This document shows positions 20,984 through 39,860 of a DNA stretch of 64,000 bases, piece after piece. The notes beneath the pieces are model-generated. The model did not search any database and was not told where the DNA came from. It worked only from the letters and a program-made list of their open reading frames with translations. Numbering within the stretch: position 1 is the stretch's first letter; each line of letters begins with the position of its first letter. Origin of the DNA: an uncultured Ignavibacteria bacterium (GTDB taxonomy: Bacteria; Zixibacteria; MSB-5A5; CAIYYT01). The stretch is taken from the NCBI GenBank assembly GCA_964576925.1, contig CAZNWJ010000001.1, positions 91,915 to 155,914 on the forward strand, given 5' to 3'. Made by a program: the position numbers and the translations under genes.

Positions 20984-20989
20984 CAGAAA

Positions 20990-22882
20990 TCAGAGCTTGG
21001 GCACAGAGGGCGGTTTGGGTACATCCCCGGACTTGTACTTGACGATGATGTTATAGTCGCGGCCGAAATCGAGACGAACACCGCCAGCTTGGATCTTTGG
21101 GTAGAAGGTCTCAATCGGGTTTTCGAAGGCGGGTTGTTCGTACATTGTGACCCCGTCTTTGAGATCCAACCACTTGAAGTGAACGGGGCTATTGCCTTTA
21201 CCCGATATCTTCTGGCTGATGGTAGGTGTGCCGCTGTTGTTAGTGAACTCAGTGTACGGGTTGTCGCCGATTTGTGCGACGATTTGGGCACCGTCGCGAA
21301 TTCCAGATATCGTCAATTCGAGTTCAAACTCCTTTTCGGCCACCTCCGCTCCGCCTGATTTGAACTGATCCTGAGCGGCCTCGACTTTCTTGACAAATGC
21401 AGGATCGAGCGTTTCGGCCGGGTGTTTGGCCCAGAATTCCTGCATCCTGGCTTCGAAAGCCGCTTGCTGCTCAGCCGGCGGTAATTTGGCTACATCGTCG
21501 CTGATCTTCTTAAAGTCTTTGGTGGCAGCGTCAGTGGCTTCCTTGAAGGGGGAATCCTCGGGAACGTCCTCAACCATTGGCGGCGCATCGGCCGACACCT
21601 GGGTTTGGACGAACGCTTGGCGCGCCTTGGCATATTCGATGAGCGGCTTGGCGCCAAAGAACTCCATCACAGGGATATGTCCAAGATAGTTCTTATAGTT
21701 GTCCTTCAGGATATTCGCCTGCTTCTGGTCGATCGGCGTCGGACCGCCGCCAAAAACCTGCTCGAACTTGTCTTCGGCGCGACTCAAAGTCCCGTCATAG
21801 ATAAACACCAGGTGATATAGATTGAAAGCGCTGAAGAGCAGCATCCAGGTGATGCTCAAGCCGATGACCCACTTGGTCATTCGCCACCACACCAACTTGC
21901 GTTTGTTAAAGAGAATCCGATTGAATGACCAAATCAGAGGATCCGGTACGCCGGAAGGCGTGATCTCGCGCGGGGGCTGAACGGCACCGGCCTGAACCTT
22001 CTCCAATCCGCCGGTGGCGGAGACAAAGAAGAACTGGAAGTCGAGATTATAGGAGGTCATCGAATCGATAAGGTTAGCCAGGGTACGTGTAACGCGTTCA
22101 CAGGAGCGCGCCCAGACTTCTCCGAAGCGGCGCTGGTTAACCTCGGCCAATCCCTTGATAAACGCCGCGACGCGCTTGCCCTTGTGCATCGCCGCGTTGG
22201 CCGGGATCAGCTCCACCGGATTGGACGGCGAGAAGCCTTCGAGGAAATCGGCCTTGGTAATCACGATGCCAATCGGGACGCGCCGGGGGGCGCAGTCGCG
22301 CAAGTCGTTGATGATCGTTTGGAAGGCGGCGATTTGTTCACGAAGCAGGACGTCGGTATCGAGCACTGAGGCATCAATAAAGAACAACGCTGCACGGGCG
22401 TAGGGGAAGAAGCGGGCGAACTGCTTGCGCAAGCCGCCCGGTTCGGCGATCGAAAGGGTCTCGCCCTTGTAATCAACCGTATAGAACTTGATGCCCTTGC
22501 GGATATTCATGTCGAGACCGAACTTGAGCACGCGCGTTTCCGAGGTCATGGTCGGGAACTTGCGCTCGCCGTCAACTTCAACCTGACGGCCTTCGCGAAT
22601 CTTGATCTGTTTGCCGCGCATCAGATTGTAGTTCTCGATCAGCGCCGCGGCGGTCTCGTTATCGAGCGGCGAAAGCTTGTAGTCGGGATTGCCTTTCAGC
22701 AATTCGTAGAGCACCGAGAAATAGACAGTCTTGCCGGCATTCGAATGTCCAAAGACCAGGACGACATTGTCGTCGTGCTGAAACGGAATGTCGGCAGCGC
22801 CCTTGGCCGGAGGGGGTGTTGCCGAGGCTTTCTTGAATATGCCGAAGGCTTTCTTAATCAGTCCGATCGGATTCAAGCTCAT
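20990..22882 (-). CDS. Membrane-anchored Ras-like small GTPase domain protein with periplasmic C-terminal domain
   Basis: 630 aa. G1 VLVFGHSNAGKT, G3 DYKG, G4 ITKAD, G5 FVSATGG. Single TM WVIGLSITWMLLFSAFNLYHLVFIY around residue 330. About 280-aa C-terminal domain. Start overlaps the upstream gene stop (ATGA). Confidence 0.6.
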   Translation of the reverse strand: MSLNPIGLIKKAFGIFKKASATPPPAKGAADIPFQHDDNVVLVFGHSNAGKTVYFSVLYELLKGNPDYKLSPLDNETAAALIENYNLMRGKQIKIREGRQVEVDGERKFPTMTSETRVLKFGLDMNIRKGIKFYTVDYKGETLSIAEPGGLRKQFARFFPYARAALFFIDASVLDTDVLLREQIAAFQTIINDLRDCAPRRVPIGIVITKADFLEGFSPSNPVELIPANAAMHKGKRVAAFIKGLAEVNQRRFGEVWARSCERVTRTLANLIDSMTSYNLDFQFFFVSATGGLEKVQAGAVQPPREITPSGVPDPLIWSFNRILFNKRKLVWWRMTKWVIGLSITWMLLFSAFNLYHLVFIYDGTLSRAEDKFEQVFGGGPTPIDQKQANILKDNYKNYLGHIPVMEFFGAKPLIEYAKARQAFVQTQVSADAPPMVEDVPEDSPFKEATDAATKDFKKISDDVAKLPPAEQQAAFEARMQEFWAKHPAETLDPAFVKKVEAAQDQFKSGGAEVAEKEFELELTISGIRDGAQIVAQIGDNPYTEFTNNSGTPTISQKISGKGNSPVHFKWLDLKDGVTMYEQPAFENPIETFYPKIQAGGVRLDFGRDYNIIVKYKSGDVPKPPSVPKL

Positions 22883-23787
22883 CGCGTGCCCTCGTGCTTC
22901 TTCGCCAGAAGTTCAGCGGCTTTGTCGCGATGGACTTTCTCCCAAGGTACCCGGATATTCAAAGCCCCGTAGACAAAGGCTGCGCACAGGACCAAGTAGA
23001 CCAGATACACCGGCCAGCGATTCCGGCAGACGTGCAGGACGAACCGCCAGTTGAACACAGAGAAGATTGTATTGCCCAGCGAGCTGAAAAAGTGCTTCAG
23101 AGCGCGCAGGATCGCAGACTCACCCTTGTAGATCTCGTTGGTGCGAAGGTACCAGGCGGCAAAATCATTATGTTCGGAAATGACGCGCAGTTCATCGGTT
23201 GGCGCAAAGGAACGAATCTCGTCCTTGCGGCCGCGCTGGTTGAGCGCCGCGATGTGCAGCATTTTCTTTTGCCAGGAGTCAGAGCGAACGATGCGCGTTG
23301 CCGAGACATTGATCTGGTCGCTTTCGCGGAAGTTGACGGCGATTTGTGCCGTGCGGTGAAGGATTAATGCGCGAAAGTCCCGATCACGCTTGGCGAAGCC
23401 TCGCAGTTTGCCGCCAAAGACGAGCGGAGCGATCGCTTGTTCGACAAACTGACTGTCGTCGACGATGCCGCGCAGTTTCTTGGCCGCCAGGAATGCATTC
23501 TGACATTGTTGCGGCGGGCGACGAACATACCAAAAGTACAACGCCAGGAGATTGGCAACGACCAAGCTGACGGGCTGCGAATTGCGCGGGATCGTGTTGA
23601 TTCGCTGCTTGAGGTGCTCGTCAACGCTGACACCGCCGTCAGCCGACAGATCGAGTCGATCAAGTTCGGCGAAGAAATTCTCGCAGTCGCGGATAAAGGT
23701 ATCCGCCGAGAAGTCCGTTTGCTGACGCTCGTAACGGTTGAGTTGGACAAAAATGGCGTTGGTAAGAGCTTTGAGTTTTTCCGACAT
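22879..23787 (-). CDS. Tail-anchored membrane protein (possible TssL/DotU analogue)
   Basis: 302 aa with a soluble N-terminal ~255 aa, one C-terminal TM (VYLVYLVLCAAFVYGALNI) and a short tail. Topology like TssL, but no sequence motif confirmed. Confidence 0.45.
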   Translation of the reverse strand: MSEKLKALTNAIFVQLNRYERQQTDFSADTFIRDCENFFAELDRLDLSADGGVSVDEHLKQRINTIPRNSQPVSLVVANLLALYFWYVRRPPQQCQNAFLAAKKLRGIVDDSQFVEQAIAPLVFGGKLRGFAKRDRDFRALILHRTAQIAVNFRESDQINVSATRIVRSDSWQKKMLHIAALNQRGRKDEIRSFAPTDELRVISEHNDFAAWYLRTNEIYKGESAILRALKHFFSSLGNTIFSVFNWRFVLHVCRNRWPVYLVYLVLCAAFVYGALNIRVPWEKVHRDKAAELLAKKHEGTR

Positions 23788-23793
23788 CCCTGT

Positions 23794-25266
23794 TTACCGC
23801 GCCCTCGAAAAGATCGAGACGTGATTCATCTTCACCGCTTCCAATGCGGAGCGATCAACATCTCCGTCAATGATAATATTCAGGCGATCGAGCCGCGAGC
23901 TTTTTAGCGGAAAGTACTCATTGGGCTGAATCAGCCAGAAATCGGGATCGCTGACATCCTCGACCGGTTTGCGGGCGACCGATGCTGCAGCGATGTCGTC
24001 GACCTCATTCGCGCCAAGGTAGATGATAACGTTGGCTGCGTACTGAATCGGCAGAACCTTCTTGTGCAACTTAACAATGACATCCTCGGTGCCGCGGGGA
24101 TCGACGCCGTCAATGACGATATGGTGGCGATTATTGCGGAAAGAATACTTGACCGCACCGTGTTGTTGCAGCAGGAAGCGGAAGCCATCGCGTTCGAGCG
24201 AATCACCTGTACGACCGGCCGCTCCCGACGCATAATAGCTTAAGATGGCGCCGACGAACTCAAGCATTCGTTCCGTGTCATTGAAGAACTGCGTCATCTC
24301 TTCGTACCCGTACGAGCGAGTCTGGTAGTCGCGTAACTCGGGCAGAATATTGCCGCCATTGAGCTCGCCTCGATCAGTCTTAATGTGGGCAGTGCGCACG
24401 TATTCGCGCAATTCCGGGTAGATGAGGAAACTCTGCTGGAAACCGCCGACAAAACCGCCAAAATAATTCATCAGGGCGCGGGCGCTGATTCCGCAATGAT
24501 GGTCGAAGATCTGATTGTAATTGAAGCCGAGGCTGTGGAGGAGATTCTCGGTCTGGAGGAAGACGCCACGAATGGTCTCTTCTTCGGCCGCCGCCGGCCG
24601 GCTCTTCACCTTCATCCTCACTTCGGCGATTGCCGCAACCCCGGCGCGTTGGATATTGTCCAATAGCTTGCGAATGTTAGCCATGCGCGAGGTAACTGCC
24701 TTGCCGCAACTCGTCGTCATGACGCTCGGGACAAACGACTCGTCAAGTCGTACATCGTCGCCCTCACGCACGATTTCAGCCACCTGAAGTCCCGCCGCCG
24801 AACCGACGGAATCGGACGCACCGGCACTTAGAAAGTAGCGGGGTACCTGATAGGGCAGGCGGCTTAAGAGTTCTCCCGGCAGTGGGTCGCCAAAGGCAGT
24901 GCGTTCGGTCGGGGAGGAATACAGAAAAATCGGAATTCTCTCACGCTTTTCCTTGGACAAGTCAAAGCTGAGCTCGACGGCCTTGAACTTGCTGTAAGCT
25001 TCATTGACGTTAACGATCGAGCCATTGGGAAGCAAGGCGGCGCACTTGAGTACCGTCACGCTAACGGTGTTGCCGCTGCGCTGAAGCTTGATCTCCAACG
25101 GTTCACTCTTGCTGCCGGCAGCTTTCACCAACCCGTAGCTGGTCGCGAGTGCGGACGCTGTCGCGCGGCTCAGGTTATAGGTGAAGTCAGCTTCCTGGCT
25201 GAAGTGACGGCTGGTAATCAGCATGCCGTCGACCCAATTAACACCCCAGACGTTTAAATCATCCAT
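23794..25266 (-). CDS. tssK: T6SS baseplate protein TssK-like
   Basis: N-terminus MDDLNVWGVNWVDGMLITSRHFSQ parallels the canonical TssK opening (V.W.EGM.L.PQHFQQ). 490 aa is the typical size. Immediately downstream of tssE-F-G. Confidence 0.6.
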   Translation of the reverse strand: MDDLNVWGVNWVDGMLITSRHFSQEADFTYNLSRATASALATSYGLVKAAGSKSEPLEIKLQRSGNTVSVTVLKCAALLPNGSIVNVNEAYSKFKAVELSFDLSKEKRERIPIFLYSSPTERTAFGDPLPGELLSRLPYQVPRYFLSAGASDSVGSAAGLQVAEIVREGDDVRLDESFVPSVMTTSCGKAVTSRMANIRKLLDNIQRAGVAAIAEVRMKVKSRPAAAEEETIRGVFLQTENLLHSLGFNYNQIFDHHCGISARALMNYFGGFVGGFQQSFLIYPELREYVRTAHIKTDRGELNGGNILPELRDYQTRSYGYEEMTQFFNDTERMLEFVGAILSYYASGAAGRTGDSLERDGFRFLLQQHGAVKYSFRNNRHHIVIDGVDPRGTEDVIVKLHKKVLPIQYAANVIIYLGANEVDDIAAASVARKPVEDVSDPDFWLIQPNEYFPLKSSRLDRLNIIIDGDVDRSALEAVKMNHVSIFSRAR

Positions 25267-25307: not shown

Positions 25308-26240
25308 CTAAAATGTCTCCCGCAAGTATGTTGAGAAACCGAGAAACGCGCTGTGCGAGTCATCGCCTATGACAAATATCGACAAACCGGGTTGAAATCG
25401 AAACCTAAGTTCGGAGCGCAAGTGTGAGGGCCGAAACAGCGTCAGCAAGTTGTTTGTGATCGTGCGCAAGCGCCCTTCGGGAGCAAATGAGGCAATATCG
25501 TCCTCGAAGAGGCCCTCGACGTTGACGCGAAAGGTTGAGAAGTTCTCTTCAAACTCCTGACCGGGAAAGAAGTCGCGTCCCAGCCGACTATTGAGCTTCC
25601 CCAGCCGGGGCCAGAAGTTATCGGGGATCGCTTCGTGCGCTGCGATGTTTTCTTCAACCGTAACGCGCTTGCCAAGGAACGCCGGCAAGACCTGCTCATA
25701 TAAGAGACGACGGCCGAGGAAGTACGGCGCAAAGAACCGCAGCAATAGCAGGTACTTGCGATCCTCCCGCGCCAGAGTCGGCAGGTCGCCCCCCAGGCTT
25801 TCCCAATAAAGCAATTCGGTATCGTTATCGTCGATGCAAAAAAGCATCCGTAGGCGAAGGAGGTAGTGGGCAATCCAATGGCGATAAGTGATCGTATCGA
25901 AGGCGCTCCAGAATTCGAGATAGCGATCCTCCCAGACTCCGGGGTGATGGTCCGATTCTTCCAGTTGCTCAACGAAGAACGACTGTGGAAAGTAGTTCTT
26001 AAAACACGGAAGGTAGGCGAAGACTACGCGCTCATCGCGTCGATCGACCCGAGACGTCACCGTGCGGATCGTCTCAATATCCGAGAAAAACCCGCCGTGG
26101 GCTTCAAGGCTTACGAACCAGAACTCGCTTGGCTCGATGCCCAGGGTATGAAGCAGCAAGCTGAATTCGGAGAGCCGGGTACGCTCGCGAATGCGATGCA
26201 CGGAAGTGATTTGCCCGGTCTTCATTGGCTCGCCGCCCAC
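25308..26240 (-). CDS. tssG: T6SS baseplate protein TssG-like
   Basis: 310 aa. Position and size after tssF, overlapping its 3' end. Weak N-terminal resemblance to TssG. Assignment mainly by synteny. Confidence 0.5.
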   Translation of the reverse strand: MGGEPMKTGQITSVHRIRERTRLSEFSLLLHTLGIEPSEFWFVSLEAHGGFFSDIETIRTVTSRVDRRDERVVFAYLPCFKNYFPQSFFVEQLEESDHHPGVWEDRYLEFWSAFDTITYRHWIAHYLLRLRMLFCIDDNDTELLYWESLGGDLPTLAREDRKYLLLLRFFAPYFLGRRLLYEQVLPAFLGKRVTVEENIAAHEAIPDNFWPRLGKLNSRLGRDFFPGQEFEENFSTFRVNVEGLFEDDIASFAPEGRLRTITNNLLTLFRPSHLRSELRFRFQPGLSIFVIGDDSHSAFLGFSTYLRETF

Positions 26241-28332: not shown

Positions 28333-30195
28333 TTAGTTTAGTGCAATGGGCTTGCCCGATACTGTTACAGGTCCTTTGCCGGTGACGCCCACCATGGCGC
28401 CCTCGGCGTTGAATTGGCCATTGGCCTTCATGTTCATGTTGCCTTTAGCAGTGGCATCGACGCTCATGCCGTCAATCGTAATGCCCTGCGATGCTTTGAG
28501 CGTCGCATTTCCCGAGCTCGACTCAATGGAGACATCGTTTGTCGCCTTAACGGTGAAAGCCTTGCCGGCCTCCATGCTGATATTTTCCTTCGCCTTGAGC
28601 ACGATATCCTTATCGGCCATTATCGTAATTGTATTCTGACTGGAATCGATGACGATCGTGTTGGTGCCGGTTTTGTCGATAATCTCGATCTTCTCTTCTC
28701 CGGACTTCTCGCGGAAAATGATCTGGTGCCCACAACGCGTGTAGATCACCTTGTTGTCGTTATCAGGCGTGTAAATCCCAGTCGGCGGCAAGTCCTGTCC
28801 GTTCCACATTGAACCGATAACGACCGGCTGAGTGGGATCGCCATTCTCAAAAATCACGAGCACTTGATCGTCGATTTCAGGGATGAAATAGAAGCCGCGC
28901 TCTCGTCCGGCGTAAGGGGAAACGAAAGGCAGCCAGTGCGATTCCAGGGCGTTGCCGTCATTGTCAAGCAAAGGGAACTGCACCTTTATCCGCCCACGCG
29001 ATTCGGGATCCTCGATGTTAGTCACAAGGGCTGGCATCGGGTCGGCCCGCCTGACCCGCGATTCTGATGCCACGCGGCTGGGTACGGCCGCTTCGAGCGG
29101 CAGTACTTCGAGCTCGTTGTAATAACCGACGTTTCCTTCGATACGGTGCGTGACGCCGGTTACGAAATAGACGCCATTATATGCAGTGCCGGCTTCTTCC
29201 AGCTTGACCGTATCGCCAACCTTAATGCTCGGGACATTAGACTGGATAGTGCCTTCCAGAAGCCCGCTGACCGCTTCTTGGCCAAGCGATTGTGCCAACA
29301 ATTTCACTTCGTTGTGGTGGAAACCCGAATCGGCAGCAGAGTTTGACGTTAGTGAAGATAGATCTCGGGAACCGGCAAAGGCCCGCTGGGCCAGCCCGGA
29401 GAATGATGTTGACGAACTTTGTTGTCCAACAAAGACCTGCTTCTGCGCGTGGTCCCAACCGCGAACGGTGTGGTTGATTTGCTGTGCATTCAAACTAATG
29501 TTGATACTGCCAACACTCTTCCCCCAAACCAACGTTTTCTGATTCCGGGTAGCGGCGGTGGCAATCTGCAGCTTCTTACCGTCATAGTATAGCCAACTAC
29601 TGGTTACGCTGGCCAGCATCACCAGGAAATCCCAATCGGTTTCCTGCCATTGGATCATATACTCCGGCGCATACCCTGCATCACCGCTGAACGTCACGCC
29701 CGCTTTTTCTATACTGTATTCTCCCACGATCCGATCAACAACATCGCTACGGGACATATTCAAGAACGTGCGGAATTTTCTGACAAAGTCCATCTTGATG
29801 GTCGGGCTCTTGGCCTCGACAGTGACGGTGGCCAGAGTGTCACCGCGACTACTGATATGAAGATTGGTGACCAAGCCGGCGAATTCCAGCGGCGACTCTG
29901 AGATGGCGTAGTCTTCGGTCGGCTTGATGGCAACGTTAATCGACTTGCCGATCAAACCGTGATAGGAGTTCGTGGCATCCAACTGCGTCTTGAAGTCCGG
30001 TGACGTCAGGTCGGCTGTCAAGCTGACCTTGAGCACGTGATGCTCGAACGCTTCTTGCCTAAGTTCGAGCGAACTCACGACCCACGAGACCGGCGAACCA
30101 TCGATCTTGACTTCGACTGCAGCCGTAATTCGGGAAAGTGGTCCCTCATCTTCGCGTTCGTCATCTTCCGGAATATCTGCTTCGTGCAATGCCAT
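28333..30195 (-). CDS. vgrG: VgrG-like spike protein (gp27/gp5 fusion) with C-terminal beta-helical repeats
   Basis: QWQETDWDFLVMLAS (gpD-like motif). gp5 OB-fold signature IPEIDDQVLVIFENGDPTQPVVIGSMWNG. C-terminal repetitive TIVIDSSQNTITIMADKDIVLKAKENISMEAGKAFTVKATNDVSIE... beta-helix. No recognisable toxin domain. Confidence 0.8.
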   Translation of the reverse strand: MALHEADIPEDDEREDEGPLSRITAAVEVKIDGSPVSWVVSSLELRQEAFEHHVLKVSLTADLTSPDFKTQLDATNSYHGLIGKSINVAIKPTEDYAISESPLEFAGLVTNLHISSRGDTLATVTVEAKSPTIKMDFVRKFRTFLNMSRSDVVDRIVGEYSIEKAGVTFSGDAGYAPEYMIQWQETDWDFLVMLASVTSSWLYYDGKKLQIATAATRNQKTLVWGKSVGSINISLNAQQINHTVRGWDHAQKQVFVGQQSSSTSFSGLAQRAFAGSRDLSSLTSNSAADSGFHHNEVKLLAQSLGQEAVSGLLEGTIQSNVPSIKVGDTVKLEEAGTAYNGVYFVTGVTHRIEGNVGYYNELEVLPLEAAVPSRVASESRVRRADPMPALVTNIEDPESRGRIKVQFPLLDNDGNALESHWLPFVSPYAGRERGFYFIPEIDDQVLVIFENGDPTQPVVIGSMWNGQDLPPTGIYTPDNDNKVIYTRCGHQIIFREKSGEEKIEIIDKTGTNTIVIDSSQNTITIMADKDIVLKAKENISMEAGKAFTVKATNDVSIESSSGNATLKASQGITIDGMSVDATAKGNMNMKANGQFNAEGAMVGVTGKGPVTVSGKPIALN

Positions 30196-30284: not shown

Positions 30285-30698
30285 TTATTTGCCCTTCCAG
30301 TCCTTCTTGTACTCGGTGCCGTTGAGGTCCACCAGCTCCGCCGAGATTTCGAAGTACTCGTACATCTGCTCGTTCGGAGCCGATGCGGTCGAGGGAACGT
30401 GCTCTTCATAGTGGGTGATGAAACCGTTCTCCCACTTCAGAACCTTTAGATCCTTCTTGAGGTTCGGATCCTTAAAGGTGATCTGGCCGGCTTTGCGGTT
30501 GACCTGGGACGAATCGAACGCCCACTTGGCGATACCGACGTTTTCGTCCGATTCCCGGCTGATCTTGATCTTCAGACCGGTCGGCACCGAACTCGGCTTG
30601 CCGTCCGCGAGATCGTGGGGGGTGAAGAGTTCATAGCTCACCGAGTGAACCTTGTCGAACTTTTCGCCATCGACCAGCAGTTCTACTTCCTGTGCCAT
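30285..30698 (-). CDS. hcp: Hcp-like inner tube protein
   Basis: 137 aa, strong SD (GCAGGAGGAAATGAACAATG). Position between tssC and vgrG. C-terminal ...YKKDWKG recalls the Hcp C-terminal Trp. Shorter than canonical Hcp (~160 aa). Confidence 0.5.
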   Translation of the reverse strand: MAQEVELLVDGEKFDKVHSVSYELFTPHDLADGKPSSVPTGLKIKISRESDENVGIAKWAFDSSQVNRKAGQITFKDPNLKKDLKVLKWENGFITHYEEHVPSTASAPNEQMYEYFEISAELVDLNGTEYKKDWKGK

Positions 30699-30807: not shown

Positions 30808-32208
30808 TTATTTCACGGCCGTCTGGCCGGAGTCGTCCACCATGGCCTCCAGCTTCACGACGTACTGCTTGATCGGCGTTTTGGTATTCAAGGCGACTTC
30901 CAGCAACATCTGCTGGTTTTCGATCATCTCGTTCGTCGCGATCACGTTGCAGGTGAAGCCGTTAATGACCTTATTGCGCTGTAACAGGCTCAGGAACTTG
31001 TTCAGGTCCCCGTCGATCGACTTCTTCAGCTTGTCGTCGAAGCCCTTGTAAACCTGTTGATTGAGGTAATTACGCATGGTCTTGTAGATGTAGTCGTAAG
31101 TCCGCTTGATCGTGTAGTTGCGGAACTTGGCGTCCTTGGACAGCGTGTCCGCGCCCATGGCCACGACATCACCAACATCGCCCTGCCAATTGAGCACGCA
31201 GTTGATGCCCTTCTCGTTGAGCTTCGTGTTCTTGGCTTCGTTGAGCTTGATCCGGGTGCTTTGCACGCCGCCCAATTTGCCATTGACCTTGCCTGCCGAG
31301 GGCGCCTGGATGCCAATATCGTTGTCGTTCTTATAGATCAATCCGGCCACCAGGGATGACGGCGGAATCCAGAGCGGATCCTTGTCAAAGCGGCTTTCAG
31401 GCTTGTCGGCTTTGACGTAGTTGCCGAAGACCGAGATATATGCCTTGTACTCGTCGTTGGAGCGCAACGAATCGTAAGACGGATCGTCGAGTTCCTCAGA
31501 CAGCTCTTCGTAGCTGTTGAAGTGCTTGAAATCGGTGAGCACGTGGAGCTTGCTCGGCATCCCCATGTCGCGAGCGACGGTGTCGATATCCTTGACGCTT
31601 CCAAGATAGCCGGGAATGCAGCAGAGCGAGTAGCAGTTCGTGATGTCATAGAGGCCGTAGATGTCGTGCACCTGCCGATTGACATACTCGAACTTCTCGC
31701 GGTCATTCGGATCAGTAAGGTCGGCGATTCCGACATTCGCGAAATAAGCGTAAATCTCGGAATCGGGCCGCGCCATCGCGTTCTGGAAGAACAAATCGAT
31801 GCCGCGATACGCAACCTCGATCGGGCGCACCGTATCGTGGATGCTTTTCATGTTCTCGCCGAGGTTCTTGTCAGCCTCAGCGATCATGTTGTCGAGTTTG
31901 TCCTTGAATTCGTCGGACGTGACGTCTCCGGCCGAGATTAATTCCGACCAAACAGAGAGCCGCTGCCTGAGCTGCTTGCGGCGGTCCTTGAATTCATCCG
32001 AAGACAAGAACTTATTGAATGATTCATTCTTGGGATCCAGGAACTTGGCGCCTTCAACGTAGACGCCGTCCTGGCTGGTGAAGTGAGACAAGTGATCCTT
32101 GATCACCTCGTAGCCGACAAAACCGGCACCGAGGATATCTTTGAGATCAGTTTTCTCTTTGACTTTTACTTCAGCCTGTTGCTGTGGGTCTTTTTCCTGA
32201 TCAGCCAT
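30808..32208 (-). CDS. tssC: T6SS contractile sheath large subunit TssC-like
   Basis: 466 aa immediately after the tssB-like gene (18-nt gap). Size and placement typical of TssC/VipB. Confidence 0.65.
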   Translation of the reverse strand: MADQEKDPQQQAEVKVKEKTDLKDILGAGFVGYEVIKDHLSHFTSQDGVYVEGAKFLDPKNESFNKFLSSDEFKDRRKQLRQRLSVWSELISAGDVTSDEFKDKLDNMIAEADKNLGENMKSIHDTVRPIEVAYRGIDLFFQNAMARPDSEIYAYFANVGIADLTDPNDREKFEYVNRQVHDIYGLYDITNCYSLCCIPGYLGSVKDIDTVARDMGMPSKLHVLTDFKHFNSYEELSEELDDPSYDSLRSNDEYKAYISVFGNYVKADKPESRFDKDPLWIPPSSLVAGLIYKNDNDIGIQAPSAGKVNGKLGGVQSTRIKLNEAKNTKLNEKGINCVLNWQGDVGDVVAMGADTLSKDAKFRNYTIKRTYDYIYKTMRNYLNQQVYKGFDDKLKKSIDGDLNKFLSLLQRNKVINGFTCNVIATNEMIENQQMLLEVALNTKTPIKQYVVKLEAMVDDSGQTAVK

Positions 32209-32226: not shown

Positions 32227-32682
32227 TTACAGTTTCTCGATATAGGACTTAATGACATTCAAGAACTCTTCTTTCTTGGCCGGATTTGACAATTCCTTTT
32301 TCAGCTTGGAATTGGGCTTGTCCAGCAGGTTCTTGAAGTTGCGCAGGATTTCGACCTCGTTGTACTTTTCCCAGAGGTATTGGTTCTTCTTGATGATTTC
32401 CATCGAACCGAAATCCTTCATTGAATTGAACTCCAGCTCGACCGACTCTTCGGACCCGTCCTGCTTATTGATCGTGACTTCCTGGGTCGGCCGAAACGTT
32501 GCGAACACTTCTTTGAGGTTTTTGCAGCGGGTCAACTCGGGTTCGGTCTCTTCGCGCGAGTTCAGCTTGGTCAGATAGACCATTTTGTTCGACGGCAAGA
32601 GATCGACGGGAATCGAATCGCTTTTCTCCTTGTACTCGGTGGTACCGATGTGGGGGGCGGCAATTCGGAACTGGTCTGCCAT
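32227..32682 (-). CDS. tssB: T6SS contractile sheath small subunit TssB-like
   Basis: 151 aa. NLKEVFATFRPTQEVTINKQDGSEESVELEFNSMKDFGSMEIIKK parallels the VipA/TssB segment (..DEVFEH..P...L.V..DGS..V.L.F.SMDDF.P). Confidence 0.65.
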   Translation of the reverse strand: MADQFRIAAPHIGTTEYKEKSDSIPVDLLPSNKMVYLTKLNSREETEPELTRCKNLKEVFATFRPTQEVTINKQDGSEESVELEFNSMKDFGSMEIIKKNQYLWEKYNEVEILRNFKNLLDKPNSKLKKELSNPAKKEEFLNVIKSYIEKL

Positions 32683-32703: not shown

Positions 32704-33837
32704 CTATAACTTGACGATTTCAAAGTTGTCGCCATTAAGGCGGACTTCGACGCGCGAGCCTTCCGGGAAGCGCCCGTCGATGATGCCGATGGAAAGCGGG
32801 TTGAGAATTTCCTTTTCGATAACCCGCTGCAGCGGCCGCGCGCCCATTTCAAAGTTGTAACCGCGTTCGGCCAGGGCCTTCATAGCTTCCGCCGTACACG
32901 AGATCGTCATCTTTTGATCTTTGAGGATCTTGTTGATGACTTTGAGCTGAATATTGACGATGGCGTTGATGCCTTTCTCCGTTAGCGGCCGGAAGATGAT
33001 CCATTCCAGGCGGTTGAGAAACTCCGGCCGGAACTTCGCTTTCAGAATCTTCATCATCTCGTCGCGATCGACCGGCTGGTTCTCGCGATAGCAATCCAGG
33101 ATGTAGTGCGAACCGAAATTGGAAGTCAGGATCACGATCGTATTCGTAAAATCGATGGTATTGCCCTGACCGTCGGTCAAGCGACCGTCGTCCAGTAGTT
33201 GCAGCATGATGTTGAAGACATCGGCATCGGCCTTTTCGACTTCGTCGAAGAGCACGACGGAATAGGGATTGCGTTTGACTTTCTCGGTCAACAAACCGCC
33301 CGCTTCATAGCCGACATACCCAGGTGGAGCACCAATCAGCTTGGCAACGGAGTGTTTCTCCATGTACTCTGACATATCGAAGCGGATCATGTTCTTTTCG
33401 TCGTTGAAAAGAAACTCGGCAAGAGTTTTGGCCAATTCCGTCTTACCTGTGCCCGTAGACCCCAGGAACAGGAAGGAGCCGATCGGCCGGTTGTGCCGCT
33501 TGATGCCGGAACGGGAACGGCGCACGGCTTCGCAGATCGTCTTAATCGCGTCCTCCTGGTCGATAACTCGTTTGCCGAGGTGATCTTCCAGGTTGAGAAG
33601 TTTAGCTTTTTCATCCTCCATCATGCGCGACACCGGGATCTTGGTCCAGCGGGAGATGACGTAGGCGACATCTTCCGTGCCAAGAGTCTGTTTCTCAGCG
33701 GTCACGAACTTTTCCAAACGATCGATCTTTTCGAGGTTTTCGCGAAATCGCGTGATCTGGCTCTTGTCTTCGCTCATTCTGCTTTCCGTTAATACCGCTT
33801 GGCGGTCTCGCAAACTGTCCGTGTTTTGGATCGACAT
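32704..33837 (-). CDS. ClpV/ClpB-family AAA+ ATPase, C-terminal fragment (M-domain remainder + D2)
   Basis: D2 Walker A GSTGTGKTELAK, sensor/arginine region, ...VISRWTKIPVSRMMEDEKAKLLNLEDHLGKRVIDQEDAI. Lacks Clp_N and D1, which are encoded by the adjacent upstream ORF in a different frame. Confidence 0.8.
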   Translation of the reverse strand: MSIQNTDSLRDRQAVLTESRMSEDKSQITRFRENLEKIDRLEKFVTAEKQTLGTEDVAYVISRWTKIPVSRMMEDEKAKLLNLEDHLGKRVIDQEDAIKTICEAVRRSRSGIKRHNRPIGSFLFLGSTGTGKTELAKTLAEFLFNDEKNMIRFDMSEYMEKHSVAKLIGAPPGYVGYEAGGLLTEKVKRNPYSVVLFDEVEKADADVFNIMLQLLDDGRLTDGQGNTIDFTNTIVILTSNFGSHYILDCYRENQPVDRDEMMKILKAKFRPEFLNRLEWIIFRPLTEKGINAIVNIQLKVINKILKDQKMTISCTAEAMKALAERGYNFEMGARPLQRVIEKEILNPLSIGIIDGRFPEGSRVEVRLNGDNFEIVKL

Positions 33838-33878
33838 GGTAGCCGACCCGATTTTTACACTCTACTCAAACCCAAGGT

Positions 33879-35294
33879 TCAAACGCGGCCCACCCAAAGG
33901 GAAAAAGTCTCTTCGAATCTGTCGTTAAACTCGCTCAGTCGCTTCTGCACATCTTCCGGAATAGCACTGTCATCCGTCGCGGCTGATTGCGCCCCCAACT
34001 TACCCTTGATTTCCTCCGCCAGCTTTCGCAGTTCCGGAATCTCGTTCTTCGCGCGCGTGCAATTGAGGCGAAACGAGGCCGCGGCTTCGTCGAGCAGGTC
34101 GATCGCCTTATCCGGTAGGAAGCGGTCGCCGATGTAACGCTGAGACAAGCGAATTGCCTCGTCAACGACGCCATCCGGGATATCGAGATTGTGATGCTTG
34201 CCGTAGGTGTCGCGTACGCCGGAAAGGATCTCCTGTGCTTCATTGAACGTCGGCTCTTCGACCATGACGCGCTGGAAGCGCCGGTCGAGCGCTTTGTCCT
34301 TTTCGATATACTTCCTGTACTCTTCTAGAGTCGTCGCCCCAATGACCTTGAATGTTCCGCGGGCCAGAGCTGGTTTGATCAAGTTAGCAGCATCCATGCC
34401 ACCCGAAGGGTTGCCGGCGCCGACCAAGGTGTGGACCTCGTCGATATAGAGAATCAGGTTGCCTTTGCCCTTGGACAGGCGTGAGATAAGCGCATTGAAG
34501 CGCTCCTCGAATTCGCCTTTGTACTTGGCCCCTGCTACCAGCTGTCCCAGATCAAGCTGCAGGAGCACCGAATCCCAAAGCTCCGGGGTGGTCTGCTTGT
34601 TAATTATCTGCAAAGCCAGGCCTTCGACAAGAGCCGACTTGCCCACCCCCGGAGGGCCGACCAGAATCGGATTGTTCTTACGACGTCGGATCAAGACGCG
34701 CGAGATGTTATAGATGTCTTCCTTGCGGCCGAAGAAATTGTCGTATTCGCCGCGGCGGGCACGCTCGCACATATCGACGCAGTACTTGATGCCTTCGGCG
34801 CCGGCGACAGCCTCTTCGCCATCGGTGACTGTTTGACCGCCGGCAATCGACTGGACAACTTTCATCTCCGCATTGGCATCGATGATCTTGCCCTCGTCGA
34901 AGTCGAGGCGGCGGCGAATCTGCTCTGACAAAGGAGAGTCCGGTGAAACCAACACCATCAAGATGTGCTCGGGGCGCACCTCGGAGTCCGAGTATTTCTC
35001 CGCCTTGTTGCCTGCTGCGACCAACAGCGATTGCAGGGCAGGTGACGCGGAGGGGCGGACTTCATCGGCAGCAGACTTACCGAATTTGGAAAGCTCGTCG
35101 GCAAGAAGCGCCTCAAAGTACTCGGGTTTCTTGCCGAGTTGCTTGAGAATTGCCGCCAGTTCTCCCTCTTCGTCGCGCAGCAAGGTGAGAAAGAGGTGCT
35201 GCGGGCGAATCTCCGAATGAAAATAGCTTTTAGCCAGTTCCTGCGAACGCCGAATGGCATTTTGCAGGGTCGTCGAGAACGATCCTAAATCCAT
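33879..35294 (-). CDS. ClpV/ClpB-family AAA+ ATPase, N-terminal fragment (Clp_N + D1 + start of M-domain)
   Basis: Clp_N repeats (IRPQHLFLTLL...), D1 Walker A ILVGPPGVGKSALVEG, Walker B LILYIDEVH. Ends within coiled-coil ...EFNDRFEETFSLWVGRV, 41 nt before the ATG of the C-terminal fragment. Confidence 0.8.
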   Translation of the reverse strand: MDLGSFSTTLQNAIRRSQELAKSYFHSEIRPQHLFLTLLRDEEGELAAILKQLGKKPEYFEALLADELSKFGKSAADEVRPSASPALQSLLVAAGNKAEKYSDSEVRPEHILMVLVSPDSPLSEQIRRRLDFDEGKIIDANAEMKVVQSIAGGQTVTDGEEAVAGAEGIKYCVDMCERARRGEYDNFFGRKEDIYNISRVLIRRRKNNPILVGPPGVGKSALVEGLALQIINKQTTPELWDSVLLQLDLGQLVAGAKYKGEFEERFNALISRLSKGKGNLILYIDEVHTLVGAGNPSGGMDAANLIKPALARGTFKVIGATTLEEYRKYIEKDKALDRRFQRVMVEEPTFNEAQEILSGVRDTYGKHHNLDIPDGVVDEAIRLSQRYIGDRFLPDKAIDLLDEAAASFRLNCTRAKNEIPELRKLAEEIKGKLGAQSAATDDSAIPEDVQKRLSEFNDRFEETFSLWVGRV

Positions 35295-35506: not shown

Positions 35507-36541
35507 TTAGCCGCCGAACAGGCGATCAATAAAAGTTTTTTTACGCTTCCGCTCAACTTGAAATGTGCCGGCGCGAAGAAAATCAGCAATGGGCCGCGTC
35601 CGATCTTCGTAGCCGGCATCGCCGAGATAGCTTGTGAGCTTGTCTTCGACGTCCGTGGCGCTGGCTGGCCGCTTTTCCGGGTCGAACGCTACGCAGCCGC
35701 GGAGAATCTGACCGAAGTCCTTGAGCAGCGAACGCGCCAGCGGGTCGCGATATTCCGGATAGAGCGCCTCTATACGGAAAGGGCGGTTTTCCCGAACGTT
35801 TTGCCGAGCTTCGAAAATTGTCTGTCCCTGATATGGGTGGCACGCTGTCGCAGCCTCCAGCATGATCAGCCCCAACGCATAGACGTCAGAGCGGCGATCG
35901 GCGTAGCCCGCTTTCAGCAGTTGTTCCGGTGATTCATAAGTTTGCGGAAGATATGGCAACTCAAGCTGCCGCCGGTCAGCAAAGGCTCTTAGCTGATTCG
36001 TGTCACAATCGGCAAGTAGGACCCGGCCATCCGGCGTCAAGAGGATATTCTCCGGACTCAGATTCCGGTGCAGAGGGATCAGGTTTCCGAGGCCGGGAGA
36101 GGGGCGGAGCCCGTGAATCTGCAGCAGGGCCGTTACGGCTCCCAGTGCGATGAGAGCGACCAGGTCGGGGTGAAGCGGCGCAAAGCGCTCGATCACGACG
36201 CGCAGGCTCGTTGCCTCGATATATTCGAACTCGAAAAAGCGAATTCCGGCGTGCTGTCCGGCGGCGTAATAGCGCAGGAGACGATCGCCGCGGAACTCCT
36301 GAAGAAGTCGCGACAGGCGGTCGAAGGTCTCGCCGATTTCAGGGTGCTGCGACAGGCGGCGCCGGAGCACCTTCAGACGCACCGCAGAATTGTCGGAGAG
36401 GCGCCGCGCCCGGAAGCAGTATGTCGTCGGTCCCTCGCCGATCGGATTCTTGTCGATCGCGTAGTTTTGAAACCGCTCCGGCAGGTCGGGATGGTCGAGG
36501 GCGGCAAAGTGAGCGTAGCGTGCTTTATTATGGGTCGACAT
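35507..36541 (-). CDS. Ser/Thr protein kinase-like protein with degenerate catalytic loop (PpkA-like, probable pseudokinase)
   Basis: Kinase fold motifs: Gly loop IGEGPTTY, VRLKVL (Lys), HRNLSPENILL in place of HRDLKPEN, DCD in place of DFG, SPE for APE. Confidence 0.7.
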   Translation of the reverse strand: MSTHNKARYAHFAALDHPDLPERFQNYAIDKNPIGEGPTTYCFRARRLSDNSAVRLKVLRRRLSQHPEIGETFDRLSRLLQEFRGDRLLRYYAAGQHAGIRFFEFEYIEATSLRVVIERFAPLHPDLVALIALGAVTALLQIHGLRPSPGLGNLIPLHRNLSPENILLTPDGRVLLADCDTNQLRAFADRRQLELPYLPQTYESPEQLLKAGYADRRSDVYALGLIMLEAATACHPYQGQTIFEARQNVRENRPFRIEALYPEYRDPLARSLLKDFGQILRGCVAFDPEKRPASATDVEDKLTSYLGDAGYEDRTRPIADFLRAGTFQVERKRKKTFIDRLFGG

Positions 36542-36634
36542 CGTCCATGATGCGCCTGGCGCACCATCCAGCTTGGTTACCTGAGTCGGTGCCGCAACAC
36601 AGGTCCGTTACGGCGTCAGTAGAGCGAAATGTGC

Positions 36635-37003
36635 TTAAAGCCCGAAACTGGGATTGGCGCCGGGAATTCGTTCGTCTTCTACCGTGAAGCGAATTACCGT
36701 CTGCAGGCCGACCTTGATCAGGTCGTTGCTCCGAAGCAACGTTTGCTCGGAGCGGACGCCGTTAATCGTGGAGCCGTTGCGTGACAAGTTCATAAAAAGA
36801 AAGGTATCGCCACGTCGAATCACCGCAAAATGCTCGCGGCTGATGGCAGCGTCCTCATCGGAGAGTACAAAATCGCAACGGTCTCCGGAACGCCCGACGC
36901 GGAACTGGACTGCCTCGGAGGAGAACTGCCGCCCGCGATCCGGACCTTCTTCGACTATCAATAACGGCCTGAGTGCCATAGTCATAGATAATAAGTCGGA
37001 CAC
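36635..37003 (-). CDS. FHA domain protein
   Basis: 122 aa. GRSGDRCDFVLSDEDAAISREHFAVIRRGDTFLFMNLSRNGSTING contains the conserved FHA G-R...S-R-H...N-GT core. Confidence 0.75.
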   Translation of the reverse strand: MSDLLSMTMALRPLLIVEEGPDRGRQFSSEAVQFRVGRSGDRCDFVLSDEDAAISREHFAVIRRGDTFLFMNLSRNGSTINGVRSEQTLLRSNDLIKVGLQTVIRFTVEDERIPGANPSFGL

Positions 37004-37259: not shown

Positions 37260-38405
37260 ATGTCTGAGCGGCACGTTCATGATTCACACTCGCACAAAGA
37301 TCAAGTCGGCGGGCTTGCCGGCGTTAAGAACATCATAGCAATTGCCTCCGGCAAGGGCGGGGTCGGTAAGTCAACGGTGTCGGTTAACCTGGCTGTGGCT
37401 TTGAAGCAGACCGGCGCCAAGGTCGGCTTAATGGATGCCGACATCTACGGCCCGAGTCAGCCGGGAATGTTGGGGGCAAGGCACGCCAAACCGGGCATCC
37501 ATGGTAACCTTCTTGAACCGGTAGAGCGGTTTGGAGTGAGCTTCGTGTCGATGGGACTTCTAATCGACAACGACGGCCCGGTGATCTGGCGCGCACCGAT
37601 GGCGATGAAGATTATCCAGCAGTTTATCGGCAATGTCGACTGGGGTGAACTTGACTACTTGCTGATCGACCTGCCGCCAGGGACGGGCGATGTGCAGCTA
37701 ACTCTGGCGCAGCAGGCGCAATTGACCGGCGCGGTGATCGTCACCACCCCACAGCAGGTGGCACTCGGCGTGGCCGCCAAGGGTCTAAAGATGTTCGAAC
37801 AAGTGAACGTGCCGATCATCGGCGTGATTGAGAACATGAGCGGATTCACCTGCAAACATTGCGGACAAGTGACAGAGATTTTCAAGACCGGCGGCGGTGA
37901 AGCTCTCGCTAAACACTCGGATGTGCCCTATCTCGGTGCGATTCCACTCGATCCACAGATCATGATGAGCGGAGATACCGGTGTGCCGTTGGTGGAAGAC
38001 GGAGCCGGCAGCGCCGGGGCACAGGCTTTCCTGGCGGTAGCACGCAGTCTGCAAACGAATGTCGCGCGACTTGCGGCCACGGTTGGAGCCGACGAGCCGG
38101 AGCAGATCGAGCTTCGACAGACCGGTGAGCTGGTCGTTACGTGGAATGACGCTTCCCAAAGCGTCTACAACCCGTTCACGCTGCGTATCAATTGCCCTTG
38201 TGCTTCCTGCGTCGACGAAAACTCCGGCCGGCGGACGCTTGATCCGAAGCGCGTGCCGCTCGATATCAAGGTAGCGAGTTTTGACATGGTCGGACGTTAT
38301 GCGGTCGCTCTTCATTTCTCCGACGGGCACTCGACGGGGCTTTATTCGTTTAAGCTCTTGAGGGAGTTGCCGAAGATTGGCGATGGCGGGTCGTTTGATG
38401 TGTAA
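37260..38405 (+). CDS. apbC: Mrp/NBP35 (ApbC) Fe-S cluster carrier ATPase fused to C-terminal DUF971 domain
   Basis: Deviant Walker [22 protein letters not shown], CxxC (CKHCG). C-terminal ~110 aa ...[29 protein letters not shown]... resembles DUF971. Confidence 0.8.
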
Positions 38406-38414
38406 GTCTGCCCT

Positions 38415-38433
38415 CCCACCGCAAGCGGTGGGG
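38415..38433 (+). terminator. Hairpin CCCACCGC-AA-GCGGTGGG after mrp stop (no U-tract)
   Basis: Inverted repeat 10 nt after the stop. Followed by a second hairpin CCCCC-TTTGCTAA-GGGGG at 38480-38497. Confidence 0.3.
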
Positions 38434-38571
38434 CACCAGATGGACTGTCCCTGGTCTGCGGGAGAATACAACCCCCTAACCCCCTTTGCTAAGGGGGAAT
38501 AGGTTCGACCAAGATCGCCTGATAATTGAAGTCGAGCCAATCGATGCGAGATTAGTGAAAGGAAGTAGAGT

Positions 38572-39159
38572 ATGTCTGAGCAAGAGATCAAAATAACGGC
38601 ACAGCTTTTCCCTGACCCGGATGTCTGCATCTTTCGCGTCGATCGGCCTGTGTTTCCGGGCGGCGCGTATGATTGCAAGTCCGCGGAGATGGCAAAGGAT
38701 TCGCCGCTTCTGGAGGCGCTGTTTGCGCTGAAAGGTGTGCGCGAGATCTTCATTACCGGCGACAGCCTGACCATTTCCAAGGATTCCGATGAAGACTGGC
38801 AAGTGCTGGGTCGCGAGGTCGGCAAGACAATCCGGCAAGCGATCAATTCCGGCAAGCCGCTGATGGCGGAGAATCTCAAGCAGCCGATGCCGCCGGATGA
38901 CGAAATCAAGAAGATCGTCACCGAGATGCTGGAGGAGCAGATCAATCCGGCAATTGCCTCGCACGGCGGGTTTGTCAACGTGGTCGACGTCAAGGAAGGC
39001 CGCATTTTCATGCAGATGAGCGGCGGCTGCCAGGGCTGCGCGTCGTCATCGATGACGTTGCGTTACGGTATCGAGCGGATGATTCGCGAGCGGATTCCGC
39101 AGATTATCGAGATTGTCGATGTCACCGATCATGGCGCGGGAGTGAATCCGTATTATTGA
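38572..39159 (+). CDS. Nfu/NifU-C family Fe-S cluster carrier (Nfu_N + NifU C-terminal domain)
   Basis: C-terminal NifU motif INPAIASHGGFVNVVDVKEGRIFMQMSGGCQGCASSSMT (CxxC). Confidence 0.75.
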   Translation: MSEQEIKITAQLFPDPDVCIFRVDRPVFPGGAYDCKSAEMAKDSPLLEALFALKGVREIFITGDSLTISKDSDEDWQVLGREVGKTIRQAINSGKPLMAENLKQPMPPDDEIKKIVTEMLEEQINPAIASHGGFVNVVDVKEGRIFMQMSGGCQGCASSSMTLRYGIERMIRERIPQIIEIVDVTDHGAGVNPYY

Positions 39160-39287: not shown

Positions 39288-39860
39288 CTATTGCAGCTCG
39301 AATGTGTCTACTTCCATCATTGAGCCTTTCCATCCCAGGTAATTTCGACAACTTGACCACGGCCACTCCTCGGCACTTGTCACCAATCCGCGTTTCACTG
39401 GATTTTTGTGGCAGTGCTCGATCCGGCTGCGAACCGCATTGACACTGCGGCAATTGTGATCAAAACACCGCCGTTCCCAAAAAGCGTTGCGCTCAATCCC
39501 ATTTCGTAGGACACGAAATTCTTTCAGCATCTCCGGATCGACCGATCGCAGGGCGCGCAAGGCGGCGTGCGCCGAACGATTCTTGGCGAGTCCGATCACC
39601 GGACCCAATTCGACTTCGACAGGAGGGACGACTACGAGATGGACGTGTTCAGGCATGATGACGTAAGCGAGAAGTCTCAGGTTATTTCGAAGACGAATTT
39701 CTCTGATCGAGTCGATGACGAACAGCTTCAGTGCATCGTAGCGGAGTGCTGGAATATCTCGATGCGTAACGAAAGTAATGAATCGAGCGCGCCCGTCATG
39801 ATCGAAGTGGCGAAGGTTCATGGATGCAACAAATGAGTAGGAAGCTGCGAGGGCAATCAC
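39288..39860 (-). CDS. REP-associated tyrosine transposase (RAYT, IS200/IS605 Y1 HUH family)
   Basis: HUH motif YVIMPEHVHLVVVP. WERRCFDHN (W.RRFWDH-like). Catalytic Tyr region CHKNPVKRGLV. Real start probably MNLRHFDHDGRARFITFVT (39821). Confidence 0.75.
   Translation of the reverse strand: MIALAASYSFVASMNLRHFDHDGRARFITFVTHRDIPALRYDALKLFVIDSIREIRLRNNLRLLAYVIMPEHVHLVVVPPVEVELGPVIGLAKNRSAHAALRALRSVDPEMLKEFRVLRNGIERNAFWERRCFDHNCRSVNAVRSRIEHCHKNPVKRGLVTSAEEWPWSSCRNYLGWKGSMMEVDTFELQ

Follow-up and report, generated by a model that had tools for sequence, protein, structure and literature searches.

Control of type VI secretion system (T6SS) firing by post-translational modification is understood almost only through the proteobacterial PpkA–PppA–Fha pathway, which is represented by the H1 system of Pseudomonas aeruginosa, by Agrobacterium tumefaciens, and by Serratia. 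Its three proteins, TagE (PpkA), TagG (PppA), and TagH (Fha1), form the minimal phosphorylation pathway; tagH-only systems exist as well, and ClpV is listed as a partner of TagH in Pseudomonas (PMC13584744, a 2026 T6SS review in which a pseudokinase is never mentioned). Here, a T6SS locus from an uncultured Ignavibacteria bacterium (GTDB lineage Zixibacteria) is compared to these systems. The DNA analyzed, called the window below, comprises 64,000 nucleotides (64 kb; contig CAZNWJ010000001.1, positions 91,915 to 155,914 of the forward strand). Reading of its open reading frames (ORFs) and Pfam matches places a gene for a forkhead-associated (FHA) protein and a gene for a kinase-like protein of 344 amino acids (aa) at the head of a minus-strand T6SS operon (Table 1). 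Judged by its sequence, the kinase-like protein represents a T6SS-linked pseudokinase family that retains the Lys of the VAIK motif and carries a MinD-like C-terminal tail.

Pseudokinases that work with FHA domains have been described in other settings. YukC/EssB of the secretion system of type VIIb (T7SSb) is a non-catalytic, membrane-associated assembly pseudokinase that is paired with the FHA domains of YukB/EssC. YukC is bitopic, has a degraded G-loop and an occluded pocket, and cannot bind ATP; the FHA domains of YukB/EssC lack the phosphothreonine (pThr)-binding residues, and their interaction with YukC is phospho-independent. In Mycobacterium tuberculosis (Mtb), the pseudokinase domain of MviN (MurJ) works with the pThr-competent FhaA, and the mark is written by a separate, active kinase, PknB. 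An atlas of bacterial Ser/Thr kinases defines pseudokinases by sequence as proteins that are without at least one of the VAIK-Lys, the HRD-Asp, and the DFG-Asp. It catalogs the families ActPs1–3, GLW, CP1, DYD, and DLHK from Actinobacteria, Firmicutes, Cyanobacteria, and Proteobacteria. In all seven the VAIK-Lys is substituted in all or part of the members, none is described as linked to a T6SS or an FHA operon, and Zixibacteria and T6SS go unmentioned. The literature searched holds no description of a T6SS pseudokinase or of a Zixibacteria T6SS.

The kinase-like protein takes on a Hanks-type fold. It passes the Pfam gathering threshold of Pkinase (PF00069; E 1.8e-20; score 73.9 bits, cut-off 31.7), and its AlphaFold2 (AF2) model, built from an alignment of 34 homologs, shows a bilobal kinase fold with high scores for local and global confidence (pLDDT 89.5, pTM 0.90). 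The best Foldseek match of the model is the kinase domain of Mtb PknB (E 1e-15, target-normalized TM-score ~0.8). At the family level, the sequence matches best to generic models of the PknB type, none of which comes near its cut-off. The protein consists of the kinase domain with short tails only. No transmembrane (TM) helix is found by hydropathy, the sole hydrophobic 19-mer being the buried αE helix, and there is no periplasmic domain.

The catalytic loop reads PLHRNLSPENILL (residues 156–168), in which Asn160 (codon AAT, 36,062–36,064) replaces the catalytic Asp of the HRD motif. This assignment is not a misalignment, because HRNLSPEN aligns with HRDLKPQN of StkP in a phmmer alignment that also places ADCD on TDFG and VRLK on VAVK. 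A displaced catalytic Asp was looked for as well and rejected, as no Asp or Glu lies within two residues of Asn160. An earlier note on this DNA, made from the letters alone, had read the two ORFs and the loss of the HRD Asp correctly, and had added a Lys-to-Ser substitution in the same loop and DCD in place of DFG. Both further changes are present in this protein, but neither is a trait of its family. Across the alignment of 34 homologs (40–90% identity), to which all conservation counts refer, position 160 is Asn in 31, Asp in two, and Ser in one. Position 162 is Lys in 26, Arg in five, Ser in two, and Thr in one. Position 179 is Ile in 30 of the 34 and Cys only here, next to the invariant Asp178, and position 180 is Asp (19), Gly (11), Glu (3), or Ala (1). 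A relative whose neighboring genes are 96–100% identical reads HRNLR and DFD (Arg162, Phe179), so Ser162 and DCD are local noise at relaxed positions. The Asp-to-Asn exchange at position 160 is thus the family trait, and Ser162 and Cys179 are idiosyncratic. With Asn in place of the HRD Asp in 31 of 34 members, the protein is a pseudokinase by the sequence definition given above.

The family combines this loss with an invariant polar core. G35, E36, and G37 of the glycine-rich loop, K57, H158, N165, D178, P205, E206, D219, and R291 are found in all 34 sequences, and 62 alignment columns, including family-specific motifs, are invariant at identities down to 40%. Lys57, Asn165, Asp178, the GEG loop, and the PknB-like bilobal fold are kept together; the third Gly of the glycine-rich loop is Ser, Thr, or Gly. 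The surroundings of the nucleotide pocket deviate from the canonical pattern. The VAIK Ala is Arg55 in 32 of 34 homologs and the β2 Val is Cys or Ser, so that the usual adenine sandwich is altered. At the position aligned to the αC Glu, none of the homologs has Glu; 28 of 34 carry Glu71, which lies five residues closer to the N-terminus. In the same alignment, the GT motif of the P+1 loop is absent, the activation segment, modeled by AF2 as an ordered helix, has no conserved Ser or Thr, and the protein has no conserved exposed Thr. The protein has thus lost its catalytic base, together with several of the elements that canonical kinases need to position ATP and to phosphorylate a substrate. 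Asp or Glu at position 180 was considered as a stand-in base and rejected as a general substitute, because 11 of the 34 members carry Gly there and still read HRN. A family-specific insertion, RPSPGxGNLIP, directly precedes the catalytic loop. P147, S148, G150, G152, and P156 are invariant in it, outgroup kinases are about seven residues shorter at this place, and the pLDDT of the model falls to 75–78 in the region. Further family-conserved segments are an N-terminal DxPxLPxxFQxY, YADRRSD, and RQNxRE.

The family is small and sharply bounded, since an exhaustive profile search of 1.84 billion cluster representatives returns only three or four family representatives before generic multi-domain kinases. 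A word-indexed search finds about 40 close homologs (40–100% identity, all ~344 aa), below which the matches drop sharply to generic kinases at ~30% identity. The closest proteins come from metagenome-assembled genomes (MAGs) labeled Zixibacteria, Zixiibacteriota, or “uncultured Ignavibacteria,” and the family appears to be confined to Zixibacteria-type MAGs. HRD is found in P0015, P0018, and L023, and HRS in P0024. The three residues at position 160 toggle among orthologs in the same synteny, with the kinase-like gene (KIN) arranged as FHA-KIN-ClpV or KIN-ClpV (L023, L031, L004, L016), so that the catalytic base is not what selection preserves. The codons (AAY for Asn, GAY for Asp, AGC for Ser) are single transitions apart through Asn. 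In a rough neighbor-joining tree rooted on generic kinases, the basal clade is HRN, and the P0015/P0018/P0024 clade is nested within the family; once L023 is added, the ancestral state at position 160 is equivocal, with several switches either way. A correlation of HRD with loss of the FHA gene was considered and dropped, as P0018 and L023 carry HRD together with FHA, and P0005 reads HKN with an unlinked FHA gene.

The gene is functional and under purifying selection, as follows from its low dN/dS, its constant length (342–346 aa among homologs), its invariant residues, and the confident kinase-fold model. Against a relative (L007, dS ~0.3–0.6), dN/dS is 0.115 for the kinase-like gene, 0.00–0.025 for the T6SS core genes, and 0.057 for VgrG. 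Apart from VgrG, it is the fastest-evolving gene of the cluster. In the same comparison, its dN is 0.057 versus 0.000–0.012 for the core genes, and the protein is 90% identical, versus 96–100% for its neighbors. Half of the non-synonymous differences fall into residues 251–295 (window positions 35,657–35,791). Positive selection on this patch was rejected in favor of recombination, since dS is also about 4-fold higher there (1.78 versus ~0.4 elsewhere), a pattern suggestive of a tract that was recombined in from an allele of greater divergence. Outside of the tract, dN is still 2–6 times that of the neighbors.

The C-terminal eleven residues, KKTFIDRLFGG in this protein and RK(R/K)GFIDRLFGG family-wide, belong to the most strongly conserved parts of the sequence, with L341 invariant and K334, G336, R340, and G343 conserved in at least 90% of the sequences. 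The membrane-targeting sequence of Escherichia coli MinD is KGFLKRLFGG (PMC5471200), to which the tail is identical at 7 of 10 positions here and, as the motif GF(I/L)xRLFGG following basic residues, at 7–8 of 10 in the family. The hydrophobic moments are likewise close (0.47 for the tail, 0.45 for MinD), and AF2 places a helix at residues 337–341, albeit with low pLDDT. By these features, the tail has the make-up of a short C-terminal amphipathic helix of the KGFLKRLFGG type, with the difference that it sits on a kinase fold rather than on a ParA/MinD ATPase. The kinase-like protein is therefore probably peripherally membrane-associated. The earlier note was right that a TM or periplasmic domain is absent, yet to conclude from this that the protein has no membrane association would probably be wrong.

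The FHA protein is a bare FHA domain. Its ORF is listed from a GTG at 37,003 (122 aa), but the true start is probably the ATG at 36,979, which gives 114 aa, because the homologs begin with MALRP, MSLRP, or MPLKP. The best NCBIfam match is to the FHA core of TagH (TIGR03354), with 41.6 bits against a cut-off of 120.25 and over profile positions 18–75 of 420 only. The residues of the pThr pocket (GR...SRxH...NG) are conserved in 13 FHA orthologs, and the intact pocket argues for a phosphothreonine ligand. A Thr of the pseudokinase was considered as this ligand and rejected, as none is both exposed and conserved, and the ligand probably lies elsewhere. The tail-anchored 302-aa protein of the cluster is a possible candidate: in a comparison with L033 and L048–L050, Thr30 and two further Thr are kept in three FHA-bearing lineages, and the same positions are Val, Ser, and Ala in one FHA-less lineage, a sample of three lineages against one that is far too small. 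An N-terminal phosphosite of the TssL kind was also considered for this protein and discarded, as its Thr9 is not conserved.

The kinase-like gene and the FHA gene are linked to the T6SS well beyond this genome. The order FHA-KIN-ClpV(N)-ClpV(C)-TssB-TssC-Hcp-VgrG recurs in ~20 distinct related loci, including the deepest branch of the family, and is therefore not due to chance; the kinase-like gene adjoins ClpV in ~23 distinct loci that span the deepest split. The FHA gene is kept less tightly. L004, L016, and L009 show KIN-ClpV without an adjacent FHA gene, and in the L009 genome the FHA gene is still found beside the ParA/Mrp gene, ~25 kb off on the same contig. The kinase-like gene is thus retained more stubbornly than the FHA gene. 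In one clade (P0022, P0028, L017, L019, L040, L041), named the DIG clade after its more canonical motif in place of DFG, the protein is still HRN and its gene lies away from the T6SS. P0022 and P0028, the only two members with annotated neighbors, have it beside pth, rpsF, rpsR, and rplI. In the DIG-clade genome examined, a T6SS is found 25–35 kb from the gene on the same scaffold; it opens with the split ClpV, with neither FHA nor kinase in front. Both genes are likewise missing from a distant T6SS of this subtype, in which ClpV is split and TssC is 39% identical. Since FHA and kinase are displaced or absent in some lineages of the subtype, the module is a lineage-specific accessory.

Set beside the known systems, the locus shares with the PpkA pathway a Hanks-fold gene and an FHA gene inside a T6SS cluster, an FHA domain with an intact pThr pocket, and the proximity of the FHA gene to ClpV. 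The suggestion in the earlier note that the pair mirrors Fha1/PpkA nevertheless does not hold. The kinase-like protein is not PpkA/TagE, as three of four testable defining features fail and the cluster context with an FHA gene is the only one found. The HRD Asp is missing (the VAIK Lys and the DFG Asp are kept), the TM helix and periplasmic sensor domain of PpkA are absent, and no cognate PppA/TagG phosphatase accompanies the gene. The lack of the phosphatase had been seen correctly. A Pfam scan of the ~54 longest non-overlapping ORFs of at least 114 aa in the window, with seven ORFs of 83–108 aa lying outside the scan, shows neither a PP2C phosphatase nor a second Pkinase, and PP2C is likewise missing among the Pfam-annotated genes of related loci. 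The FHA protein, a bare domain of 114 aa, also differs from TagH, whose profile spans ~420 positions. Finally, the T6SS is of another subtype than the PpkA-type T6SS-i, as shown by its TssC (PF17541), its Hcp (PF17642), its split ClpV, and the absence of matches to TssJ, TssL, and TssM.

The closest functional analogy is EssB/YukC, likewise a secretion-machine pseudokinase with FHA domains. The present protein differs in keeping K, N, D, and the GxG of the kinase fold, in the intact pocket of the neighboring FHA protein, in lacking a TM helix, in its proposed anchoring through an amphipathic helix, and in its link to a T6SS; a specific sequence relationship is not detectable. MviN–FhaA offers an analogous pairing of a bacterial pseudokinase with a pThr-competent FHA protein. 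In MviN, however, the pseudokinase forms one polypeptide with a membrane flippase and receives the phosphorylation itself, whereas the protein described here has no conserved exposed Thr and stands in the context of a secretion system. The cataloged pseudokinase families are Hanks-derived with substitutions of the HRD Asp (Asn in ActPs2), as is the present family, and DYD shares with it both the DxD motif and the lost αC Glu. Going by their descriptions, they are set apart by the VAIK Lys, which all or part of their members lose and which the present family keeps invariantly as Lys57.

A somewhat better than even chance is given to the reading that the 344-aa protein is a non-catalytic, membrane-tethered Hanks-fold accessory that positions parts of the non-canonical T6SS, with the FHA protein adding a pThr input. 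Under this reading, the pseudokinase would sit on the cytoplasmic face of the inner membrane via its MinD-like amphipathic helix. Its conserved surfaces (DxPxLPxxFQxY, RPSPGxGNLIP, YADRRSD, RQNxRE) would recruit or position T6SS parts, perhaps aided by a ligand in the retained K57/N165/D178 pocket. It may act alone or together with the adjacent FHA protein. As the phosphothreonine pocket of the latter is intact, some other kinase, or residual activity, would place a pThr mark on a target that is not the pseudokinase. What the data show is the fold, the motif states, the pattern of conservation, the synteny, and the purifying selection; the loss of catalysis, the membrane binding, the scaffold role, and the FHA partnership are predicted. 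This goes in part with the earlier note, which had predicted either an impaired scaffold pseudokinase or an atypical mechanism, and whose interpretation is partly supported. A number of observations weigh against this accessory role. Weak activity can persist in kinases with a D-to-N mutation and in proteins that are HRN by nature, HER3 among them. An invariant K57/N165/D178 triad would be expected if a nucleotide and Mg were still bound and possibly used, and the three lineages with HRD could be active. The pThr-binding residues of the FHA domain require a kinase, and no further one is seen in the vicinity. As the FHA gene is dispensable or unlinked in L004, L016, L009, and the DIG clade, the pair is not obligatory; as the DIG-clade gene adjoins pth, rpsF, and rpsR, a role beyond the T6SS is possible. 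The sole ground for membrane binding is the resemblance of the tail to that of MinD. In a bolder form, considered distinctly unlikely, the protein would be a positioning switch: an anionic ligand or nucleotide bound in the K57/N165/D178/R55 pocket would cause dimerization, MinD-like membrane binding, and nucleation of the TssJLM-less T6SS, with FHA coupling a pThr signal to it. Dimerization would here turn one weak amphipathic helix into stable membrane binding, as in MinD.

The same triad, GEG loop, FHA pocket, and HRD lineages are what a weak or atypical genuine Ser/Thr kinase would show, and with no other kinase in the scanned ORFs of the window this is the rival to be taken most seriously, though it is considered somewhat unlikely. 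The protein would then be a soluble or peripheral PpkA analog that phosphorylates a T6SS component read by FHA, as modeled on the Agrobacterium PpkA–TssL–Fha pathway, and Asn160 would do no more than slow the reaction, or a different residue, e.g., Asp/Glu180 of the DxD, would assist. The second acid has precedent in the DYD family (DxD for DFG) and in POMK (DLD), where it is modeled or reported to form a salt bridge with a basic residue and to support ATP binding, and the 302-aa protein, with its TssL-like topology and its Thr kept in FHA-bearing lineages (a very small sample), could be a substrate. Yet ~90% of members are without the catalytic base, which interchanges with Ser; Lys162, which would contact the γ-phosphate, varies; Arg replaces the VAIK Ala, and Cys or Ser the β2 Val; and the P+1 GT motif, the canonical αC Glu, and a cognate phosphatase are missing. 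The DIG clade, HRN without a second acid, leaves no consistent compensation. The DIG clade also underlies the proposal, judged improbable, that the protein acts as a regulator or scaffold in the general cell biology of Zixibacteria-type bacteria and that its T6SS linkage is historical rather than functional: there, the gene lies away from a T6SS that starts at ClpV and is preceded by neither FHA nor kinase, the gene is just as well conserved beside pth, rpsF, rpsR, and rplI in P0022 and P0028, and the distant T6SS of the same subtype does without both genes. Against this stand the ~23 distinct loci across the deepest split that keep the gene immediately upstream of ClpV and the T6SS on the same scaffold in the DIG-clade genome examined; among the genomes found, none with the gene is demonstrably without the T6SS. 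A functionless, decaying relic of a once active PpkA-like kinase is given hardly any chance. Although the gene evolves faster than all others of the cluster except VgrG (90% versus 96–100% identity) and positions 162 and 179 change between close relatives, a dN/dS of 0.06–0.15, an intact frame and constant length in all full-length members recovered, and 62 invariant columns with family-specific motifs essentially refute it.

Table 1. Features of the kinase-like protein, the FHA protein, and the T6SS cluster (window positions).
Feature	Position	Strand	Basis or remark
Small stand-alone FHA protein, first gene of the operon	36635..37003	-	PF00498, E 7.7e-13
Hanks-fold kinase-like protein, 344 aa	35507..36541	-	Pkinase PF00069
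Glycine-rich loop GEGPTT, residues 35-40	36422..36439	-	G35, E36, G37 invariant in 34 homologs
β3 motif VRLK, residues 54-57	36371..36382	-	Lys57 kept (34/34), VAIK Ala replaced by Arg55
Family-specific insertion RPSPGLGNLIP, residues 146-156	36074..36106	-	directly before the catalytic loop
Catalytic loop HRNLSPEN, residues 158-165	36047..36070	-	Asn160, Ser162; metal-binding Asn165 kept
DCD for DFG, residues 178-180, in LLADCDTN	36002..36010	-	Mg-binding Asp178 kept
C-terminal tail KKTFIDRLFGG, residues 334-344	35510..35542	-	predicted amphipathic membrane-targeting helix
ClpV/TssH N-terminal half (Clp_N, AAA D1, lid)	33879..35294	-	Pfam
ClpV/TssH C-terminal half (AAA_2 D2, ClpB_D2-small)	32704..33837	-	Pfam
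TssB	32227-32682	-	Pfam/NCBIfam
TssC (PF17541)	30808-32208	-	Pfam/NCBIfam
Hcp (PF17642)	30285-30698	-	Pfam/NCBIfam
VgrG	28333-30195	-	Pfam/NCBIfam
TssE-like, 114 aa	27985-28329	-	Pfam/NCBIfam
TssF-like, 591 aa	26222-27997	-	Pfam/NCBIfam
TssG	25308-26240	-	Pfam/NCBIfam
TssK	23794-25266	-	Pfam/NCBIfam
Tail-anchored protein, 302 aa, TssL-like topology	22879-23787	-	hydropathy
P-loop membrane protein (GHSNAGKT, N-terminal), 630 aa, central hydrophobic segment, weak DO-GTPase2 match	20990-22882	-	
Protein of 269 aa, weak GAP1-N2 match	20174-20983	-	

Downstream of the pair, the operon continues from the split ClpV to TssK, and three conserved proteins of no assigned family (302, 630, and 269 aa; 20,174–23,787, minus strand) end the cluster. 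The gene order is shared with the loci L033 and L048–L050. As TssJ, TssL, and TssM have no Pfam matches in the cluster, these three proteins may be the membrane complex of the subtype. The two ClpV halves (32,704–35,294) are separate genes in different frames with a gap of 41 nucleotides; because the split is kept in every related locus, including the distant T6SS L034 (TssC 39% identical), it is a genuine feature of the subtype and not a frameshift. VgrG is the most divergent T6SS gene between relatives (35–63% identity versus 80–95% for its neighbors), and the gene calls of L001/L013 divide it into two ORFs (252 and 188 aa; 16,284–17,765 in L001).

Just downstream of the cluster lie an ECF (extracytoplasmic function)-type sigma factor (18,372–18,911, minus strand) and, beside it, a putative single-pass anti-sigma factor (17,677–18,375, minus strand), a pair that could regulate the T6SS cluster; nearby, at 19,510–19,854, a protein with an RRM domain is encoded. 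Upstream of the FHA gene, a ParA/Mrp-type and a NifU-type gene are divergently transcribed. An ORF of 408 aa antisense to them (37,785–39,011, minus strand) is almost certainly spurious, a mere shadow ORF, given the strong Pfam matches and the conserved orthologs of the plus-strand genes. A further ORF of 190 aa (39,288–39,860, minus strand) holds a Y1 (IS200-like or REP-associated) transposase domain, and a similar gene is found near the locus in the relatives L001 and L032. In L001 and L049, the T6SS locus lies a few kb from dnaA and dnaN. Scans of 32–40 kb for promoters, terminators, and Rfam elements gave nothing above expectation.

The result is well supported at the level of sequence and evolution, and the mechanism is put forward as a proposal built on it. 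The locus shows a different solution in an uncultured phylum, with a kinase fold that is without the catalytic base, the sensor domain, and the partner phosphatase, and it is distinguished by a MinD-like tail and a minimal FHA reader ahead of a split ClpV. Should the role of scaffold or switch hold, the protein would be the first pseudokinase associated with a T6SS, convergent with EssB/YukC of the T7SSb, and the catalog of bacterial pseudokinases would gain a family that keeps the VAIK Lys. The locus thereby offers a handle on the anchoring and triggering of a non-canonical, TssJLM-less T6SS.

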